A DNA stretch of 64,000 nt, taken from positions 32,001 to 96,000 of IMG/VR virus record IMGVR_UViG_3300011832_000001, one strand, 5' to 3'. The notes beneath the pieces were generated by a model. That model saw only the letters and a list, made by a program, of their open reading frames with translations. It did no database searches and was not told where the DNA came from. The position numbers and the translations under genes were made by a program. Shown here piece after piece: positions 31,974 through 63,167 of the stretch (position 1 is the first letter of the stretch; each line of letters starts with the position of its first letter). The stretch comes from a virus (taxonomy: Duplodnaviria > Caudoviricetes).

Positions 31974-32531
31974 TTACCAATATGGAACTCCCATAGAATA
32001 ATTATCATTTCCTGAATACCCTTTAGATGTTGAATATCTAATTATCTTCACGGGCAAACTTTTTGGCATCTTAACGTATTCATCAATTGCCCTTCCTATA
32101 AAATCATACCCACGAAAATACCCAAATCTAGGAACATCCCTAAATGAAGGTTTTCGAGTTTTCCAACCTTGAGAGATTAGAATTGCGCTATGACCTTTGT
32201 TTGTATTAGAGCTAAATAAACTATCTCTTATAACCTTTGAATCATCAAATTCTATATAGACATAGTAATAAGCTCTGCCATTAAAAATTGTTTTCCTCAC
32301 ACCTGTTTGAACCAAACTGTGTAATAACCTATATTGTCTTTCATAGACTGTAGGTTGATAAGAAGCATAATAAGCTTCAATGTGCTTTTGAATTAAACTT
32401 CTTAAAATTGTAGCTTCTCTATCTAACATACTGACTAGAACTGTTTCCTGTAAAGAACTTCCCTGTCTAGCCATTTCGGGAATTCGCATTATTAAATCAT
32501 TCGGACTTGGATTCATCTTCAACAACTTCAT
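31974..32531 (-). CDS. Tail-associated hypothetical protein
   Basis: Y..Y.P..Y.R motif; tail module position. Confidence 0.6.
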   Translation of the reverse strand: MKLLKMNPSPNDLIMRIPEMARQGSSLQETVLVSMLDREATILRSLIQKHIEAYYASYQPTVYERQYRLLHSLVQTGVRKTIFNGRAYYYVYIEFDDSKVIRDSLFSSNTNKGHSAILISQGWKTRKPSFRDVPRFGYFRGYDFIGRAIDEYVKMPKSLPVKIIRYSTSKGYSGNDNYSMGVPYW

Positions 32532-33146: not shown

Positions 33147-35426
33147 TTAGTAACGAATCAATTCAACCATTTTCTTACCATTCGCATCTTGAAGTACATC
33201 AAGGTTGAATGTGAAAGTAGATGGGTTCTCAGGGTCTAACGTGATAGTCATACCCGGTAATAGCTTCGCTTTTGGAATGTTGATTTGGAATGCATGGTCT
33301 TTACCATCTTTTTCATTACGAACCAATGTGTTAGCAACAACACGGTAAGTTGATGGATAGTCGTTAGAGTTAAATGTAACTGTAACTGCTTCCGTAACTT
33401 CTTTTTCGTAGTAGATGATATACTGAGCACCAACTACAAGAGCTGTTCCTGCAAGAGTAACAGAACCTGTAACAAACTGATAACCATCAGTAGCACTATC
33501 AGCGATTTCCTCACCACTACCACCATCAGCCAACATTTGAACCTGAACAACTGTTTCTGCATCTGCAACAGGAATTACACCATCAGCAGGAGCTACAGCT
33601 TTCTTAGTAAGCATAACTGTTTTAGTTCCTGTCTCAGCTTGTGTACCTGCCATCATAGCCAATGATTGGTCAGAAAGTAAAGCATCCTCTACTTGTAATT
33701 GTCCTTCCTATTGTATTCGCTATAAGTCGCAACACTTATAACCGTTCTTGCCAAGTAGTATCAAGAACTGCTTATGGTTTCCCATAAGTATAGACTATAT
33801 CAAAAACTCAATCGAGTTCCTTCCCATTTCCAACACCATTAGCTTGTGTTGTACTCGCATTTCAGCGATAGTCGTTGAGGATTGAATCTATATTATTTTT
33901 TAAAATTTGTAAATTGTAATTTCTATATCTAGCATAGTTTCTTTGTCTTACTCTTATCAAAGGAATATTCATATTTTCACAATATTCATTTTTGGTATTA
34001 TCATTTGATTTTTGATTTTCAAAGCTACTTTCTCCGCCAAAGAATTCAATTGGCTTATAGTGTTGCTCTCCGTCAAATTCAATCAGACATATCAACTTAT
34101 TTTTATGATATACTCCAAAATCAAATCTAAGACTATAATTTTGATTTATGCCACTCTTTAAATCTTCGAATGTTACTTCTCTTTCTACTTCCAATTTAAA
34201 TTCATTGATAAGATTAAAGTATAGGTCATCTGCCCAAATGTTATTTGATTTTCTACAGAAATCACATTTTGAACCACCCATAACTTTATGATGATATTTT
34301 TCATTTAATTTATGACAATCAGAACATTTATATAGAGACTTCTCTCTGCTACCTCTGTACTCAATCATTATTAAATTCATATATCCTTGAAATTTATTAA
34401 TTATCTCAGCATTGCAAATTTCTAAATTTTTTAATTTGGAATTTGAGCAAGATGGACAATTATCATTTCCTGAAATTCGAAGTCTGACAAAAGAACAATC
34501 AAAATCATTTGAACATGAATTACATTTCAGAAAAACTCTCTCATCATCAAAATCAATTAAGCTATAATTTTTTTCCTTACAGCTCTCATCTATTAAAGAT
34601 TTTCTACTACATCTCTTACATGAATATCCACGATGAGAAAAGTTAGATGGAATAACATTAACTTCCTCTAAACATTTATTGCAGGATATAGTAACTGATG
34701 TTTTAGCGTTTTTATAATCCGAAATCAATTTAAAATCAAATTCTTTTAATTTATTATAGAATTTACTCATAATATAGACTCCTTTCCTGCGTATTATCCA
34801 TTTTAATTATATCATATATAATTAAATCTGTCAACTTTTTATAGCATTTACGTTTGTGTTTCCACTCCGCTTTAGCATGACAGCTTTAGGATTTTCACGC
34901 ATTTAAAGAAGTTTCGACATGGCATCACTACCATGAAGCGCAAATTATTTACGGTTGTAGTCCCCACTACAAATATATTCAATACAGTTCGTTAAGCTGT
35001 ATTCGTCATAAGACTGCTCATAGTTTCCCATGAGATTAGACTATATCTTCAATCAATTAAGATTGCCCTCCGTTTCCATTCACTTGAATGTACGTTAAAA
35101 ACTAGTCGTTGAAGTTTACCCATTTTAAAGGGTCTTACCTGCTTATTGTCCAATCCTAAATATTTTCAAGCATTCACACTTACCTTTTCAGATTATGTTG
35201 TAGCTATTTAGGCTCTAAGGATTTTCAAGCAATTAGAAGGGTTTTAATTGAGCAGGACTTTCGTTTACCCAATGATACGTGGATTACCTTGTCCACCTCG
35301 CGCATAAACAGTCTCTCCCGTTAACTCTAGGTTAGACATTTTAGCTGTGTCCATGAAAAGGACAGGTTTATTTGTTTCTAAGTCGATGAAAATTAAATCA
35401 GCAACCTCTTTAATACCATAACGCAT
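33147..35426 (-). CDS. Major tail tube protein, 3 exons: 35426-35267, 34964-34951, 33707-33147 (244 aa spliced)
   Basis: Joined exons read in frame ...GGQGNPRIIG-WDYNR-EGQLQVEDALLS...; GGAGG RBS; C-terminal FQINIPKAKL...PSTFTF. Confidence 0.88.
33862..34770 (-). CDS. Intron-encoded endonuclease: CxxC repeats plus Vsr/EDxHD-like nuclease domain
   Basis: Repeated CxxC; LRFDF...IEFDGEQHY...K.EYC...IPLIRV; stop overlaps the intron core. Confidence 0.82.
   Translation of the reverse strand: MSKFYNKLKEFDFKLISDYKNAKTSVTISCNKCLEEVNVIPSNFSHRGYSCKRCSRKSLIDESCKEKNYSLIDFDDERVFLKCNSCSNDFDCSFVRLRISGNDNCPSCSNSKLKNLEICNAEIINKFQGYMNLIMIEYRGSREKSLYKCSDCHKLNEKYHHKVMGGSKCDFCRKSNNIWADDLYFNLINEFKLEVEREVTFEDLKSGINQNYSLRFDFGVYHKNKLICLIEFDGEQHYKPIEFFGGESSFENQKSNDNTKNEYCENMNIPLIRVRQRNYARYRNYNLQILKNNIDSILNDYR
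34806..34834 (-). promoter_or_regulatory. Intron-internal sigmaA promoter for the endonuclease
   Basis: TTGACA-17-TATAAT with TG on -. Confidence 0.8.
34965..35266 (-). mobile_element. Group I intron 1 (302 nt, ORF-less)
   Basis: P1 AUUGGGU/GCUCAAU with U.G; P10 AGUCCU/GGGACU; CAACGACTAG and AAGATATAGTC; terminal G. Confidence 0.92.
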
Positions 35427-35497
35427 TAAATTTTTCCTCCTTATTAATAAAAAAACTTTCAGTAAATTTGCTTCTCGATATAGGACTCTCACCTATA

Positions 35498-57970: not shown

Positions 57971-58028
57971 ATATATACAGTACCCAATCCGCCTCTTAAC
58001 AATGTGCTCTAGATTGGGTCTTAATTAA

Positions 58029-58103
58029 CTGAACGTAGGCTAATGGTAAGTCGCTTGATTTGGGTTCAAGAGAGTGAGAGTTCGATTCTCTCCGTTCAGA
58101 CCA
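58029..58103 (+). tRNA. tRNA-Pro(UGG)
   Basis: Cloverleaf, loop TT-TGG-GT, CCA. Confidence 0.92.
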
Positions 58104-58104
58104 T

Positions 58105-58181
58105 AGGGATGTGGGCAAATTGGTATAGCCGTCTGCCTTTGAAGCAGAAGTTTTTTGAAGGTTCGAACCCTTCCATCCCTG
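58105..58181 (+). tRNA. tRNA-Gln(UUG)
   Basis: Cloverleaf, CT-TTG-AA, no encoded CCA. Confidence 0.85.
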
Positions 58182-58189
58182 CTTATCGT

Positions 58190-58264
58190 GGTGGCTATGA
58201 CGTAATGGTAACGTGACGTTCTGTGAAAGCGTATATTCGGGGTCAGTACCCGATAGCCACACCA
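58190..58264 (+). tRNA. tRNA-His(GUG)
   Basis: CT-GTG-AA, encoded G-1, atypical T-loop GTCAGTA, CCA. Confidence 0.85.
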
Positions 58265-58265
58265 A

Positions 58266-58337
58266 GCCTTATTAGTTTAATTGGTAAAACAGGAAACTTG
58301 TAATTTTCAGAAGGCGGTTCGAAACCGTCATAAGGCA
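58266..58337 (+). tRNA. tRNA-Thr(UGU)
   Basis: CT-TGT-AA; no CCA. Confidence 0.9.
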
Positions 58338-58383
58338 TTTTATAGAAAAAATAAGAAAGGTTAGGTGATGACTTATTTCTAAA

Positions 58384-58959
58384 ATGACTAGAAGTGAAGC
58401 AGGCAAATTAGGTTCTTTGAAATCGACTCAAAACTTCCTTAATAGGTATAATCAAAATCCTTCTTATTGTGAAGAATGTAATGAGAAGCTTGATTATAAA
58501 AAAAGAAATAATCAATTTTGTAGCAGAAAATGTTTTCATAAAAATCGTTCAAACAAAGAAAATTTAAAACATTTAGAATGCCTAAATTGTAAATCAAATA
58601 TTCTAGGGAAAAATAGACATAGAAGACTTTATTGTTCTCAATCATGTTTTTTTGAACATGACTTAAAAAAAGATGTTGAAAAATTTCTTAATGATGAAGT
58701 TGATTTTGGGATAAAAAGAATAAAAAGTGTTTTAATTAGCATACATGGTAACACCTGTTCTTCTTGTGGTAATACTGAGTGGATGGATAATCCAATACCT
58801 TTGGAATTACATCATATAGATGGAGATGCGAATAATAACAGCAGAGATAATGTTGTTCATTTATGCCCTAACTGTCATGCATTGACAGATAACTACAAAA
58901 ATAAAAACAAAGAATCAACTAGGAAGTATAGAAAAAAATATTATCAACCCGCAACATGA
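58384..58959 (+). CDS. Free-standing HNH endonuclease with Zn-ribbon repeats
   Basis: LELHHIDGD..NN...LCPNCH; FCS..C repeats. Confidence 0.88.
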   Translation: MTRSEAGKLGSLKSTQNFLNRYNQNPSYCEECNEKLDYKKRNNQFCSRKCFHKNRSNKENLKHLECLNCKSNILGKNRHRRLYCSQSCFFEHDLKKDVEKFLNDEVDFGIKRIKSVLISIHGNTCSSCGNTEWMDNPIPLELHHIDGDANNNSRDNVVHLCPNCHALTDNYKNKNKESTRKYRKKYYQPAT

Positions 58960-58967
58960 TTTATTAT

Positions 58968-59041
58968 GGCTATGTAGTTCAGTGGTAAGACGAGTGGTTG
59001 CAACCCACTAGACCTCAGTTCGATTCTGAGCATAGCTTCCA
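58968..59041 (+). tRNA. tRNA-Cys(GCA)
   Basis: TT-GCA-AC, U73, CCA. Confidence 0.92.
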
Positions 59042-59065
59042 TTTTATTTTAAGGAGGATATTCAC

Positions 59066-59311
59066 ATGAAAGACCCTTTAGTATTTGATAAAAGATTCAA
59101 AGGATTTTATATTAAGTTTCAAAACTTTAATAGAACTAGAATGTTCCATGATTGGAGCTTTGCTTTCGGTGGATGTAAAGAATCCTCTAGCAGATTTAAA
59201 AATGGATATGATAAACCAAAAACGCATGATGGTAGAGATATTTACTTTTTCGCTACTTTCTTTAATTATCAAATTTCATTTGGTCATGAAAAATTGGAGA
59301 CTGTTCAATGA
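59066..59311 (+). CDS. Hypothetical protein
   Basis: AAGGAGG RBS. Confidence 0.65.
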   Translation: MKDPLVFDKRFKGFYIKFQNFNRTRMFHDWSFAFGGCKESSSRFKNGYDKPKTHDGRDIYFFATFFNYQISFGHEKLETVQ

Positions 59312-59517
59312 AAACAGAAAAAGAGATTCAAGAAAGAATTGATGAACATTATAAGAAAATTAAAATTTTTGAAAGAATCATCAAAAAGAATGGAGAAAGT
59401 TTAGGACTTACTCTAGCGATAGAAATTCAAGAGACATATATTCTAGGTTTGGAATGGGTCTTAAATGAATCAAAGCTAGAAGACAAACTTATAAAAAAAG
59501 CTATTGACAAGAAGTAA
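59308..59517 (+). CDS. Hypothetical protein
   Basis: GGAG RBS, ATGA overlap. Confidence 0.6.
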   Translation: MKTEKEIQERIDEHYKKIKIFERIIKKNGESLGLTLAIEIQETYILGLEWVLNESKLEDKLIKKAIDKK

Positions 59518-59532
59518 GTAATATGATATAAT
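59504..59532 (+). promoter_or_regulatory. sigmaA promoter
   Basis: TTGACA-17-TATAAT with TG; predicted start coincides with ACAGCAA RNA 2. Confidence 0.85.
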
Positions 59533-59539
59533 AAGATAA

Positions 59540-59661
59540 AGACACAAACAGCAAATTTTCCAAATTATATTTCTGCAAAAATAAGGTGGGAGTTCGAATC
59601 TTCCCTTTCCGATACTAGGTCTTGGAATGTGGTGTAATGGTAGCACAAAAATGGTGTGTCT
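59540..59661 (+). ncRNA. ACAGCAA-motif RNA, copy 2: YrlA-like circularly permuted tRNA mimic
   Basis: AGACACA/TGTGTCT stem; T arm, closed acceptor stem and D arm in permuted order. Confidence 0.8.
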
Positions 59662-59704
59662 AGTAAATGACCTTCCTAGTGGGTCTAAATTATTTTAAAT
59701 TTAA

Positions 59705-59850
59705 ATTTATTCTAGTACGGTCGCCCGTATCCCAATTGGTTAAGACGACTCAAAAAGCTGATGGCTACCTGCCTAGTAATAGGAAATATCTACCTCAGAT
59801 TAGTAGAGGGCAAACTCAGCATAAAAGGTTGGAATACCTCTAGAATAAAT
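59705..59850 (+). ncRNA. Unknown ~146-nt structured RNA
   Basis: 11-bp terminal stem ATTTATTCTAG/CTAGAATAAAT with nested stems. Confidence 0.6.
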
Positions 59851-59855
59851 ATTTT

Positions 59856-59930
59856 GGACTCTTAGCTCAGAGGAAGAGCCGTCAGCTCATAACTGACAGG
59901 TCGAGATTTCGAAATTCTCAGAGTCCACCA
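59856..59930 (+). tRNA. tRNA-Ile2(CAU) (or elongator Met)
   Basis: CT-CAT-AA; GGAC acceptor start as in Bacillus Ile2; CCA. Confidence 0.8.
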
Positions 59931-59934
59931 ATAT

Positions 59935-60005
59935 TGCTCATCTAAGGGTTTAGACTTACGTCTCATAAGCGTGATGAAGTGGTTCAACTCCACTATGAGC
60001 AACCA
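59935..60005 (+). tRNA. Atypical tRNA(CAU) with reduced D arm
   Basis: TGCTCAT/ATGAGCA acceptor, CT-CAT-AA loop, T arm, CCA; 71 nt. Confidence 0.6.
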
Positions 60006-60015
60006 AATTTAATAC

Positions 60016-60044
60016 TTGACAAATGGTTTCAAGTATGGTATAAT
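60016..60044 (+). promoter_or_regulatory. sigmaA promoter
   Basis: TTGACA-17-TATAAT with TG. Confidence 0.8.
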
Positions 60045-60057
60045 AAGTATATAACAT

Positions 60058-60132
60058 GGGGGATTAGCTCAATTTGGTTAGAGCGTTGCACTGTCTATGC
60101 AAAGGTTGCGAGTTCAAGTCTCGTATCTCTCG
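60058..60132 (+). tRNA. tRNA-Asp(GUC)
   Basis: CT-GTC-TA, G73; no CCA. Confidence 0.88.
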
Positions 60133-60202
60133 TTAGAATCTCAAGCGAAACACAAGCGAAGTTCCGTTTCTTCTATTAACGCCACTGAGGTTCTTCTAAT
60201 AT

Positions 60203-60279
60203 GGCTGTCGGGAGGTTGGCATCTCAAGTAGTCTCATAAGCTACAGTAATTTGGTTCGATTCCAAAGGTTCAGCAACCA
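60203..60279 (+). tRNA. Atypical tRNA(CAU) with irregular acceptor stem
   Basis: GTAGT-CTCATAA-GCTAC, TTTGG-TTCGATT-CCAAA, CCA. Confidence 0.6.
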
Positions 60280-60286
60280 ATTTAAG

Positions 60287-60898
60287 TTTCAATGCTTAAA
60301 TAAATAAATCTACTAAACCTAGTGCAAGAATGGCGTAAGACACCATGCTAGGACGGTATCGTGTAAAATCCAATGTGGTCAAAGAGTGGGATACTGCTCA
60401 TTGATGAATACACAGCACATCTTATGGCGACATAAGAATAGCCAATAGTAAAAGCTATTGTTGGTGAGGTAACGTGTGGAGCTTAATGATTCATAAAGTA
60501 CAGTGAACTAGTGGCGATGACAATAGACAGTCAAAGTTTGACGTTGAAGCCTATAGCGCTTCCAAAGGGATTTGGAAGTATAGATGCGTAGGTAATCCAA
60601 AAACAAATCGCTATCCGTTGAAGCAACAGAAATGTTTTGTATAACACTAGAAACTGATGCAAGTAGCCTTATCGGATTAGTTTAATATAGAGTATATTTG
60701 AAGACTTTATGTAAAATAACTATCTGAATGTCTTCGGTGAAAGCTGTAACCCGTTGCGGTTGACAACGCCTTGAAATGCAATAAGATGTTTCGAAGTAGC
60801 TAGCGAAGCACAGACTTATTGAGCGTTTGACTGAATAATGAAGCAGTTAAGTGAAGCAGGAGTAAAAGCCTAGTGATTTATTTATTTAAGTATTGAAA
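60287..60898 (+). ncRNA. Large structured RNA (~610 nt), ROOL-like (GOLLD alternative)
   Basis: 24-bp terminal pairing, no long ORF, many internal hairpins, inside a phage tRNA array; family assignment from size and context only. Confidence 0.65.
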
Positions 60899-60905
60899 AT
60901 ACTTT

Positions 60906-60980
60906 GGGGAGATAGCTGAGATAGATTAGCGAAGGTTTGAAACGCCTTAGAGGTTGGAGCGTTACCAACTCTTCCCACCA
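60906..60980 (+). tRNA. tRNA-Phe(GAA)
   Basis: TT-GAA-AC; non-canonical T-loop AGCGTTA; CCA. Confidence 0.82.
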
Positions 60981-60985
60981 AATAT

Positions 60986-61076
60986 GGAGCGTTACCCAAG
61001 TCAGGTTGAAGGGGACAGGTTGCTACCTTGTTAGGCGTTAATTCGTGCGTGGGTTCAAATCCCACACGCTCCTCCA
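60986..61076 (+). tRNA. tRNA-Ser(GCU)
   Basis: TT-GCT-AC, long variable arm, CCA. Confidence 0.9.
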
Positions 61077-61091
61077 TTTTAAAAATAACTG

Positions 61092-61120
61092 TTGACAAAC
61101 AGTTGATTAAATGCTATAAT
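61092..61120 (+). promoter_or_regulatory. sigmaA promoter
   Basis: TTGACA-17-TATAAT with TG. Confidence 0.8.
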
Positions 61121-61138
61121 ATAAATATAGCAAAACAT

Positions 61139-61212
61139 AGTGGTATAGCTTAATGGTAAAGCCTTTCGCTGATAACGGAAAGATGGTAGTTCAATTCTAC
61201 CTACCACTACCA
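61139..61212 (+). tRNA. tRNA-Ile(GAU)
   Basis: CT-GAT-AA, CCA. Confidence 0.92.
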
Positions 61213-61217
61213 AATAC

Positions 61218-61293
61218 GTGTCCTTAGCTCAGTGGTTAGAGCGCTCGCCTGTTAAGCGAGATGTCCTCGGTTCAAATCCTGTAGGATACGCCA
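61218..61293 (+). tRNA. tRNA-Asn(GUU)
   Basis: CT-GTT-AA, G73, CCA; T-stem mismatched (CTCGG/CCTGT). Confidence 0.82.
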
Positions 61294-61297
61294 ATAT

Positions 61298-61384
61298 GGG
61301 GATTCGCTAGAGTTGGAGAGCTAGGACGGGCTGTAACCCCGTTGCGTTTACGCTGATAGTGTTCGAATCACTAAGTCCTCACCA
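61298..61384 (+). tRNA. tRNA-Tyr(GUA)
   Basis: CT-GTA-AC, long variable arm, CCA. Confidence 0.9.
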
Positions 61385-61385
61385 T

Positions 61386-61459
61386 GCTTGATTAGTTTAA
61401 TGGGAAAACATCTGTTTTACATGCAGAAGTCAGTGGTTCGATTCCACTATCGAGTACCA
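61386..61459 (+). tRNA. tRNA-Val(UAC)
   Basis: TT-TAC-AT, CCA. Confidence 0.9.
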
Positions 61460-61463
61460 ATAT

Positions 61464-61539
61464 GGGGAATTAGTTTACATGGATAAAACACTTGGTTTGC
61501 AACCAAGAAAAATCAGTTCAATTCTGATATTCTCCACCA
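61464..61539 (+). tRNA. tRNA-Ala(UGC)
   Basis: TT-TGC-AA, G3.U70, CCA. Confidence 0.92.
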
Positions 61540-61545
61540 AATTAT

Positions 61546-61623
61546 GGGACGGTAGCTCAGGGGAATTAGAGCAGTTGGCTTTTAACCAACGGGTCGAAGG
61601 TTCGAATCCTTCTCGTCTCACCA
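61546..61623 (+). tRNA. tRNA-Lys(UUU)
   Basis: CT-TTT-AA, CCA. Confidence 0.92.
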
Positions 61624-61630
61624 TTATTAT

Positions 61631-61738
61631 TGGGAAGACAACATGGTTGGCTCTATGACGGTAGAGAGAAATATAGGTGCAACTCCTATACACTTCGGTG
61701 AGTAGTAAAATGTGAGTTCAAGTCTCACCTTCCCAACC
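61631..61738 (+). ncRNA. tRNA-like RNA: acceptor stem and T arm with three non-tRNA hairpins
   Basis: TGGGAAG/CTTCCCA; GTGAG-TTCAAGT-CTCAC. Confidence 0.65.
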
Positions 61739-61749
61739 CTTTTAAATAT

Positions 61750-61823
61750 GGCTTCGTATTCCAATTGGCAGAGAAAACGGTCTTAGAAACCGTACAGTGT
61801 GAGTTCGAGTCTCACCGAAGCTA
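61750..61823 (+). tRNA. tRNA-Leu(UAG), short variable arm
   Basis: CT-TAG-AA; no CCA. Confidence 0.85.
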
Positions 61824-61902
61824 CTTAAAGACCCCTTCGAAACTGCGGTTGACGATTAAATGGTGTTATCTCTACGGAGAGCATCATCGAGGGAAATATT
61901 AT

Positions 61903-61979
61903 GTGCAATTAGCTTAATTGGAAAAAGCCCCTGACTACGAATCAGGTAGCTGTAAGTTCGAGTCTTACATTGCACACCA
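61903..61979 (+). tRNA. tRNA-Arg(ACG)
   Basis: CT-ACG-AA, CCA. Confidence 0.92.
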
Positions 61980-61983
61980 TCAT

Positions 61984-62055
61984 GTCCCGTTAGTCAAGTG
62001 GTTAAGACGTTAGATTTTCAATCTAAAGGCAGGAGTTCGATTCTCCTACGGGGTA
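61984..62055 (+). tRNA. tRNA-Glu(UUC)
   Basis: TT-TTC-AA; no CCA. Confidence 0.88.
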
Positions 62056-62063
62056 TTTATTAT

Positions 62064-62151
62064 GGAGACGTAGACATAATTGGTATTGTGGTGCTCTTGA
62101 AAAGCATTGAGCCTAACGGCTTTGTCGGTTCGAGTCCGACCGTCTCCTCCA
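62064..62151 (+). tRNA. tRNA-Ser(UGA)
   Basis: CT-TGA-AA, long variable arm, CCA. Confidence 0.9.
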
Positions 62152-62289
62152 TTTTGATTTTTGTGACACGTATTAGAATTTGGGAAACAGGTTAGTTAGA
62201 GACCATCCTAATGATAAGCAAGAAAGTGTTGTAGCTTATTGCTTGATTCTAACATCATTTTTCTAGTACGTGGTCAGAGAAATCAAAAT
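62151..62289 (+). ncRNA. Rod-shaped ~139-nt RNA with internal bubbles
   Basis: ATTTTGATTT/AAATCAAAAT, ACGTATTAGAA/TTCTAGTACGT, GTTAG/CTAAC, ATAAGC/GCTTAT. Confidence 0.6.
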
Positions 62290-62295
62290 TAATAG

Positions 62296-62324
62296 TTGAC
62301 ATTTTGGTTAATCTATGTTATAAT
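62296..62324 (+). promoter_or_regulatory. sigmaA promoter for ACAGCAA RNAs 3-5
   Basis: TTGACA-17-TATAAT with TG. Confidence 0.85.
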
Positions 62325-62342
62325 TATATTATAAGGTTAAGA

Positions 62343-62398
62343 AAGACTCGTAAACAGCAATTTATAAAAATTAGGATGAATTTTATTAATTGAGTCTT
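62343..62398 (+). ncRNA. ACAGCAA-motif RNA, copy 3
   Basis: AAGACTCG/TGAGTCTT stem, ACAGCAA, AU-rich inner hairpin. Confidence 0.7.
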
Positions 62399-62424
62399 GT
62401 TACATACCTACAATGGGTAGGTCA

Positions 62425-62541
62425 AAAGCACATACAGCAATAAATTCTTACGAATTTACAAATCTGAACAAATATCAGGTATATCATCGAAAGGTGACGT
62501 GTTTGGAATCTGCTTGACGAGACGACAGATTCTTGTGCTTT
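62425..62541 (+). ncRNA. ACAGCAA-motif RNA, copy 4 (four-hairpin cargo)
   Basis: AAAGCACA/TGTGCTTT stem, ACAGCAA. Confidence 0.7.
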
Positions 62542-62550
62542 GTTTATTAT

Positions 62551-62632
62551 CCTTGAGTGGCGGAATGGCAGACGCTGAGGACTTAAAATCCTTTGTCTTT
62601 ATGACGTGAGAGTTCGAGTCTCTCCTTGAGGA
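62551..62632 (+). tRNA. tRNA-Leu(UAA)
   Basis: CT-TAA-AA, long variable arm; no CCA. Confidence 0.88.
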
Positions 62633-62642
62633 CTTATATTAT

Positions 62643-62714
62643 GCGCCTATAGTTAAACGGATATAACACATCCCTTCTAAGGATATATTCGAGGTTCGAT
62701 TCCTCGTGGGCGTA
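62643..62714 (+). tRNA. tRNA-Arg(UCU)
   Basis: CT-TCT-AA; no CCA. Confidence 0.88.
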
Positions 62715-62749
62715 TTAGCAAGACATAGCTTACCATTGTAAGCAAGTTT

Positions 62750-62817
62750 TAGGCACTAACAGCAAACTTTACACTATTAAAATTATTCGGAAAATTTAAT
62801 TGAAGTAAAAGTGCCTA
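62750..62817 (+). ncRNA. ACAGCAA-motif RNA, copy 5
   Basis: TAGGCACT/AGTGCCTA stem, ACAGCAA, inner TTTAC/GTAAA and AU hairpin. Confidence 0.7.
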
Positions 62818-62820
62818 GTT

Positions 62821-62925
62821 ACATACCACTATGTCGGAATAGTGGATATGTCGGTATTGACGGATACCGTCTAGAATGGCTTCTAATTGTCATAATGAAA
62901 GACTTGCAGACTTTAAATAGTCTGC
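62821..62925 (+). ncRNA. Unknown multi-hairpin RNA
   Basis: CCACTAT/ATAGTGG, GACGG/CCGTC, TAGAA/TTCTA, GCAGACT/AGTCTGC. Confidence 0.5.
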
Positions 62926-62932
62926 CCTCTAT

Positions 62933-63006
62933 AGGTCTTTGGTGTAGTGGTAACACGCTGAGTTCCAACCTCAGAATCGTGGGTTCGATTCCTACAAGAT
63001 TTGCCA
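62933..63006 (+). tRNA. tRNA-Trp(CCA)
   Basis: TT-CCA-AC, G73, CCA. Confidence 0.9.
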
Positions 63007-63011
63007 ATTAT

Positions 63012-63084
63012 GTGGGATTAGTTTAACGGTAGAATATCGGTCTTCCAAACCGAAGGTGCTAGGGTTCGACCCCCTCATCCCATA
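63012..63084 (+). tRNA. tRNA-Gly(UCC)
   Basis: CT-TCC-AA; irregular T-stem; no CCA. Confidence 0.8.
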
Positions 63085-63167
63085 TCAAAAAAAGAGCGAA
63101 GAAACGCATTGTTGGATAAGTCCCAACACTTCGCTCTCCATTTTTTTATAGAAAGGAGAGCTTAAGA

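Follow-up and report, generated by a model that had tools for sequence, protein, structure and literature searches.

Three group I introns interrupt orf142, the tail tube gene of Staphylococcus phage Twort, and two of them, highly similar members of subgroup IA2, enclose an exon of 23 nucleotides (nt) that is subject to exon skipping (Landthaler & Shub 1999, as recounted in PMC10136302 and PMC11878797). Skipping has also been observed for a 34-nt exon between twin group I introns in the 23S ribosomal RNA (rRNA) gene of Coxiella burnetii (Hicks et al. 2011, as recounted in PMC10136302). Two Bacillus prophages, B. weihenstephanensis KBAB4 BwK1 and B. cereus B4264, harbour a group I intron in their tail tube genes (PMC2504315), and in Bacillus phage 0305phi8-36 a group I intron of recA encodes I-Bth0305I, a homing endonuclease of the EDxHD family (PMC3239194; PDB 3R3P). 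The locus described here belongs to an uncultivated large phage (Caudoviricetes). It lies in a stretch of 64,000 nt (the window), positions 32,001 to 96,000 of IMGVR_UViG_3300011832_000001, a virus record of 123,866 bases (124 kb) that is ~76% complete. Sequence comparison makes it very probable that a single tail tube gene is split here by two independent, related and mobile group I introns, inserted only 14 base pairs (bp) apart in the codons of a W-D-Y-N-R strand (Table 1).

Splice junctions and host gene

The evidence for the junctions comes from relatives that lack both introns. Their proteins (P0001, 97% identical in amino acids (aa) over exon 3; P0002, 85%; P0004 and P0005, about 70%) carry exactly the predicted joined sequence, IIGWDYNREGQLQVEDALL, also read as GWDYNREGQLQVEDALL, and the contiguous DNA of three intron-less alleles (L006, L007 and L009) reads ATTGGTTGGGACTACAACCGTGAAGGACAA, with no base gained or lost at either junction. 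Because the joined sequence exists as contiguous DNA in these relatives, the splice sites can be considered settled. P0004 is encoded on a 34.6-kb contig covering the whole tail module and is therefore most simply explained as genomic DNA. An earlier note on this DNA had proposed a continuous spliced frame of 244 aa (PRIIG-WDYNR-EGQLQVEDALL); every coordinate, length and sequence that it gave for the locus was found correct on re-reading, and the frame was reproduced (160 + 14 + 561 = 735 nt, or 244 codons and a stop) and aligned without gaps to intron-less homologues. The same alignment, which the note had proposed as a check, places the W-D-x-x-R segment in these homologues with exact junctions.

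Conservation of the 14-nt micro-exon extends well beyond these relatives. In the phrog_2729 profile, exon 1 corresponds to positions 3-54 and exon 3 to positions 61-246, leaving exactly positions 55-60 between them. Among 71 family members there are no gaps in W-D-[YF]-x-[RK], with the first position occupied by tryptophan in 59 (phenylalanine in the other 12), the second by aspartate in 55, the third by tyrosine or phenylalanine in 45, and the last by arginine or lysine in all 71. Homologues from cultured phages (Thrax1 and PJN02 of Bacillus, 949 of Lactococcus) also align to the spliced product without gaps. In the model of P0002, residues 1-54 of which are 96% identical to the exon 1 product, W-D-Y-N-R falls inside a long strand (residues 50-66).

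Both introns would terminate translation at once if read through: intron 1 begins AAACGAAAGTCCTGCTCAAT and ends GTAGTG, its opening AA creating an immediate in-frame stop (T|AA), and intron 2 begins with AAA TAA, again an in-frame stop, and ends with AATAG. Exon 3 opens with GAAGGACAA at 33707. Joining exon 1 directly to exon 3 yields GGG TGA, an immediate stop after a stub of 53 aa, which agrees with the expectation that omission of the 14 nt would disrupt the frame.

The host gene had been called a major tail protein gene, and this identification holds: the product is a siphophage tail tube (major tail protein) of the SPbeta YomU / SPR type, as judged by sequence family, fold and gene order. 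Relatives are annotated as major tail or tail tube proteins, carry precomputed PF27173 (YomU_Tube) assignments and are found in the conserved order YomX-YomW-YomV-[tube]-YomO-tape measure. No model in the local Pfam copy matched the tube protein itself, and the family name is taken from the precomputed assignments of the relatives. The fold was assessed on an AlphaFold model of the full-length, 85%-identical P0002 (predicted local distance difference test (pLDDT) score of 92.9), for which Foldseek returned the tail tube 8xkn (template modelling (TM) score 0.82, E = 2e-17) and the SPR tube 8ygm (TM 0.80). Solved structures among the fold matches (8ygm, 8ygc and 8ygo) show a member of this SPR/SPbeta tube family bound in a complex with DSR2, a defence protein. 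No second copy of the tube gene was found in the 124-kb record. Megablast of the region against phage GenBank records gave no match, and protein relatives in the Lactococcus 949-like and Bacillus Tsamsa-like/PJN02 groups are below 60% identity. A search of viral contigs with exon 3 returned no relative, and the exact pattern of micro-exon plus intron 2 start had no match in viral and metagenome contigs; the relatives used here came from protein searches.

Table 1 Features of the split tail tube gene, in window coordinates
Feature	Position	Strand	Remarks
Ribosome-binding site (RBS) of the tail tube gene, AAGGAGG	35436..35442	-	9 nt upstream of ATG; read in sequence
Exon 1 of the tail tube gene	35267..35426	-	160 nt, 53 codons + 1 nt; ATG at 35426; ends CGT ATC ATT GGG T
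Intron 1, group I, without open reading frame (ORF)	34965..35266	-	302 nt; Rfam RF00028
Internal guide of intron 1, AGUCCU (P10) then GCUCAAU (P1)	35247..35259	-	pairings checked base by base
Micro-exon GGGACTACAACCGT	34951..34964	-	14 nt; (T)GG GAC TAC AAC CGT = W D Y N R
Intron 2, group I, with ORF in P6 loop	33708..34950	-	1243 nt; each half alignable to intron 1
Guide of intron 2, UUUGCGCUU	34936..34944	-	Rfam alignment; pairs with AACCGU|AAA (P1)
Predicted homing endonuclease encoded in intron 2, 302 aa	33862..34770	-	own RBS AAAGGAG; Pfam, PHROG, structure alignment
Exon 3 of the tail tube gene	33147..33707	-	561 nt, 186 codons + stop; starts GAA GGA CAA; TAA at 33147

Two group I introns around one micro-exon

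Intron 1 is readily recognized as a group I intron, with a match to Rfam RF00028 (curated cut-off 50 bits) at 35292-35017 that scores 84.1 bits (E = 5.9e-20); over the whole record, the only other group I match is a weak one at 33968-33771. Its helices P1, P3-P9 and P7.1 all pair, a hairpin CAUUCA/UGAAUG occupies the P7.1/P7.2 place between P7 and P3', and the intron ends in a terminal G. The P1 and P10 pairings reported previously were both confirmed base by base: P1 (AUUGGGU/GCUCAAU) has 7 bp with a U.G pair at the splice site, and P10 (AGUCCU/GGGACU) has 6 bp and uses nt 1-6 of the micro-exon. The 5' splice site reads GGG-T in all five alleles that carry intron 1, and GGT-T or GGA-T in all three intron-less alleles; the G at position -2, which pairs in P1, therefore travels with the intron.

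Further support for P10 comes from a second type of intron 1 (type B), found in three alleles (L020, L018 and L017), in which the guide reads AAUCCU. In the two of these whose contigs include the micro-exon (L018 ends before it), the micro-exon reads GGGAUU, so that AGUCCU/GGGACU and AAUCCU/GGGAUU differ by a double change from G-C to A-U that involves base 5 of the micro-exon. In P3, the two intron 1 types differ at two pairs in which both bases have changed and pairing is kept (CCCUUC/GGAGGG and CUCUCU/AGAGAG). A second structure draws on some of the exon bases used by P10: the 3' end of intron 1 can form a hairpin with nt 4-9 of the micro-exon (UGUAGU-G|GGG-ACUACA, 34956-34972, - strand; -6.9 kcal/mol), which also covaries in type B (UGUAAU/AUUACA) and is mutually exclusive with P10.

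The copy of intron 2 in this phage scores only 19.9 bits with RF00028, below the cut-off, owing to the 909-nt ORF within the P6 loop. An ORF-less allele of the same intron in a relative (L008; 361 nt) reaches 63.5 bits (E = 1.4e-15); in the 5' part it matches the present copy at 164 of 168 positions, and a 7-bp hairpin stands where the ORF would be. Contigs of run X2 similarly hold intron 2 without the ORF (joint 33883-34782, with the same 17 letters between), and runs X2 and X12 contain a third form, in which 87 other letters replace 34881-33894 to give a different P5/P6 region, again without ORF. All core helices of intron 2 (P3-P9) pair, the P7.1/P7.2 place holds a hairpin UCGC/GCGA plus a second hairpin, and the intron ends in a terminal G. 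Hairpins at this place are expected of subgroup IA2 introns, such as those of T4 td and Twort, and the two introns may belong to that subgroup. P3 differs between introns 1 and 2 in a compensated manner, and intron 1 and the ORF-less form of intron 2 are about 59% identical; judged by their sequences, the two introns are related but not near-copies. With scores of 84.1 and 63.5 bits and paired cores, the presence of two group I introns, as originally proposed, is upheld at a level well above chance.

P1 of intron 2 is formed by AACCGU|AAA with the guide UUUGCGCUU (AACCGU/GCGCUU) and uses nt 9-14 of the micro-exon, with a U.G pair at the splice site; its P10 is weak, with only 3 bp that the guide UUU can form with GAA of exon 3. 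An alternative P1 between GGUAGU in the P2 loop and ACUAC in the micro-exon (-3.2 kcal/mol) was rejected; it would break P2, and the available alleles are too nearly identical to be informative. The claim that the micro-exon serves both introns is borne out by these pairings, with nt 1-6 contributing to P10 of intron 1 and nt 9-14 to P1 of intron 2.

Endonucleases, alleles and mobility

The ORF in intron 2 encodes 302 aa, with three treble-clef zinc ribbons (DUF4379 in Pfam) followed by a C-terminal Vsr-like (EDxHD) nuclease domain (DUF2726 in Pfam); in PHROG it matches phrog_559 and phrog_9084. D217, E231, G234, H237, D257 and K260 are invariant in 30 homologues (motif IEFDGEQH ... D257). Structural alignment of a model (mean pLDDT 86) with VIA-align gave its best match to the catalytic domain of I-Bth0305I (3r3p; 98/98 residues, Z 11.2, root mean square deviation 2.7) and its next to Vsr (1cw0; Z 10.3). 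This model-based evidence identifies the product as a predicted EDxHD/Vsr-like homing endonuclease (family: PMC3239194), and the PHROG label 'HNH endonuclease' was rejected, the fold and motif being Vsr-like. Neither phmmer against the PDB nor NCBIfam gave a match, and Foldseek on the whole model returned weak PD-(D/E)XK matches only, so that VIA-align alone placed the protein with I-Bth0305I and Vsr. The target consensus of I-Bth0305I, TTxG-N6-CxAA, is absent from both insertion sites. The last codons of the gene (LNDYR*) are supplied by the ribozyme core (J6/7-P7, 33862-33885). The conserved AACGACUAUCG of J6/7-P7 is translated as N-D-Y-R in both intron endonucleases (33862-33885; L020:3620-3715), and the ORF of type B intron 1 continues through P3' and P8, stopping just short of GAUAUAGUC.

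Relatives present the two introns in a series of states. Both are absent from the three intron-less alleles. In L020, intron 1 alone is present (1106 nt) and holds an intact 284-aa endonuclease of the same family, homologous to that of intron 2 and 28% identical to it. In L017, the intron 1 endonuclease ORF is broken into 196 + 73 aa and intron 2 is present without ORF (363 nt); L008 and run X2 also have intron 2 in ORF-less form. The arrangement of the window, in which intron 2 encodes the endonuclease and intron 1 has no ORF, is shared by L019 and X1. As far as can be read from sequence, the two introns are separate mobile elements, caught at differing stages of endonuclease gain, decay and loss. 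As DNA, each intron would spread with the help of a homing endonuclease of the Vsr-like (EDxHD) kind that it encodes itself; this phage would have kept the enzyme of intron 2 and lost that of intron 1, with the reverse or intermediate situation in relatives. Once both are present they are probably inherited together, because their insertion sites are only 14 bp apart.

The intron-less target contains an inverted repeat, GGTTG-N6-CAACC (L006:128-143; here 34953-34964 plus 35267-35270). The repeat starts 4 bp ahead of the insertion site of intron 1 and stops 2 bp short of that of intron 2. It could provide half-sites for a dimeric Vsr-like endonuclease, and a repeat of 5 + 5 could also arise by chance.

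This range of allele states (none, intron 1 only, or both, with the endonuclease intact, broken or lost) displays the homing cycle of two neighbouring introns and supplies natural variants for asking how a 14-nt exon shared by two ribozymes escapes skipping. It also bears on annotation: gene callers report fragments of 53 and 171 aa, so that a major tail component of this lineage is mis-annotated, and the 14-nt exon is detectable solely through comparison with relatives.

Closely spaced group I introns were also seen in a gene of another viral contig. A terminase-like gene in IMGVR_UViG_3300035522_000076 (L012:2100-2950 (-)) has three within 3.4 kb (117, 80 and 73 bits); an exon of only ~90 nt lies between two of these, with an endonuclease-like ORF in between; related intron cores also occur in terminase large-subunit genes of L010 and L011. 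Elsewhere in the window, a ROOL RNA (60294-60890; 207.7 bits, Rfam) lies within an array of 22 transfer RNA (tRNA) genes (58000-63100 (+)).

Proposed splicing and comparison with described systems

The four splice sites and both ribozyme cores can be taken as fixed by sequence together with comparison, as can the guide pairings, the family of the endonuclease and the allele series. Both introns would self-splice from late messenger RNA. Intron 1 would define its 5' site through P1 and its 3' site through its terminal G together with the P10 of 6 bp that engages the first half of the micro-exon, and intron 2 would define its 5' site through the weak P1 with the second half (AACCGU/GCGCUU). The in-frame stops at the intron starts would keep ribosomes off the ribozymes, and only the exon 1-2-3 product would yield the 244-aa tube protein.

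Several points weigh against this picture. The intron 2 copy falls under the Rfam cut-off owing to its ORF, and its P1 is weak, with 3 bp at the splice site followed by a C.C mismatch (U.C in L017) and an exon part worth about -1 kcal/mol. The hairpin at the 3' end of intron 1 competes with P10 and covaries as P10 does. With the record at ~76% of the genome, a second tube gene could lie outside it. A 1056-nt contig from metatranscriptome X17 does join 33707 to 35269 with TTGGGACTACAACCGT between them, the exon 1-2-3 form, but it stems from a relative of ~96.6% identity that has GGT-T and other variants of the intron-less L006. Because it shares these variants it is not counted as proof of splicing, and it may represent an intron-less strain or library DNA.

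The weakness of intron 2 invites the reading that the gene is decaying, a pseudogene or crippled allele in which one or both introns, above all intron 2, splice poorly; the mismatched P1 of little stability, the low score, the large ORF and the incompleteness of the record would all fit. This is nevertheless highly improbable, given that this is the sole tube gene found in the record and that its exons are intact, with an exon 3 protein 97% identical to that of an intron-less relative and an exon 1 product 100% identical to that on three other contigs. The intron 2 core is nearly identical to ORF-less alleles scoring 63.5 bits, the twin-intron layout recurs in several samples, and the endonuclease ORF is unbroken and keeps every catalytic residue. 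It is also improbable, although less starkly so, that the phage makes use of exon skipping, some transcripts joining exon 1 to exon 3 so that a 53-aa peptide is made and tube output is lowered or timed. Precedents exist in Twort, where the 23-nt exon was seen to be skipped, and in engineered tandem Tetrahymena introns (PMC10136302); here, core sequences are common to the two introns, and AGGAC (nt 3-7 of exon 3) offers a second pairing partner to GUCCU of the intron 1 P10 guide. That alternative P10, however, is shifted by two bases relative to the terminal G of intron 2; identity between the introns is only ~59%, as against 'highly similar' introns in Twort, and their guides differ, a situation that favours exon inclusion according to Ueda et al. 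(PMC10136302).

The earlier note, which has the micro-exon serve both introns, had concluded from the frameshift that loss of the 14 nt would cause in an abundant virion protein that the order of splicing matters. No support for this was found in the sequence: P10 (intron 1) and P1 (intron 2) draw on separate, non-overlapping parts of the micro-exon, so that either intron could leave first. The near-complete engagement of the 14 nt in pairings speaks for a fixed order, as does the covarying hairpin, which could keep the exon in place until the reaction of intron 1, yet each pairing site survives removal of the other intron and L020 carries intron 1 alone; a fixed order is therefore unlikely. 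The real hazard, on this analysis, would be exon skipping rather than splicing order. One further idea, for now speculative and rather doubtful, is that the micro-exon serves as a control element common to both introns, an RNA switch by which its inclusion is enforced or the pace of tube production set, the introns perhaps forming, as DNA, one composite homing unit around GGTTG-N6-CAACC. It is raised because intron 1 offers two partners that exclude each other, the P10 guide and the 3' hairpin that places the splice site in its loop, and a single base of the exon covaries with both, and because the micro-exon also feeds the weak P1 of intron 2.

A single tube gene carrying two separately mobile introns remains the favoured interpretation, and it is best judged against the described systems. 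The resemblance to Twort orf142 is close in that related group I introns surround a very short exon of a phage tail tube gene and inclusion of that exon is needed. Twort, however, is a myovirus; it has three introns and a 23-nt exon, compared with two introns and 14 nt here, its introns are highly similar rather than ~59% identical, and its splicing and skipping are experimental findings rather than deductions. The EDxHD-type endonuclease carried by one of the present introns is a further difference. The statement that phage group I introns are less common in structural genes than in those of DNA metabolism has to be softened in view of orf142, a precedent for a tail tube gene with multiple introns and very short exons (PMC10136302, PMC11878797). 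In Coxiella, two group I introns also flank a short exon, but the host gene is a bacterial rRNA gene that does not code for protein, and the introns belong to different subgroups. The tail tube intron of the Bacillus prophages resembles those described here in being placed in frame and having early stop codons, although a single intron is described there. The intron 2 enzyme shares with I-Bth0305I its intron-encoded origin in a Firmicutes-type phage, the C-terminal Vsr-like domain and the E..D..H..D residues, but differs in its N-terminal DNA-binding part (zinc ribbons, DUF4379/DUF723, in place of NUMOD/HTH (helix-turn-helix)). The principle of this arrangement has been known since Twort orf142, and the present case adds breadth rather than a new mechanism; what is new here is the allele series and the covariation of P10 with the micro-exon.

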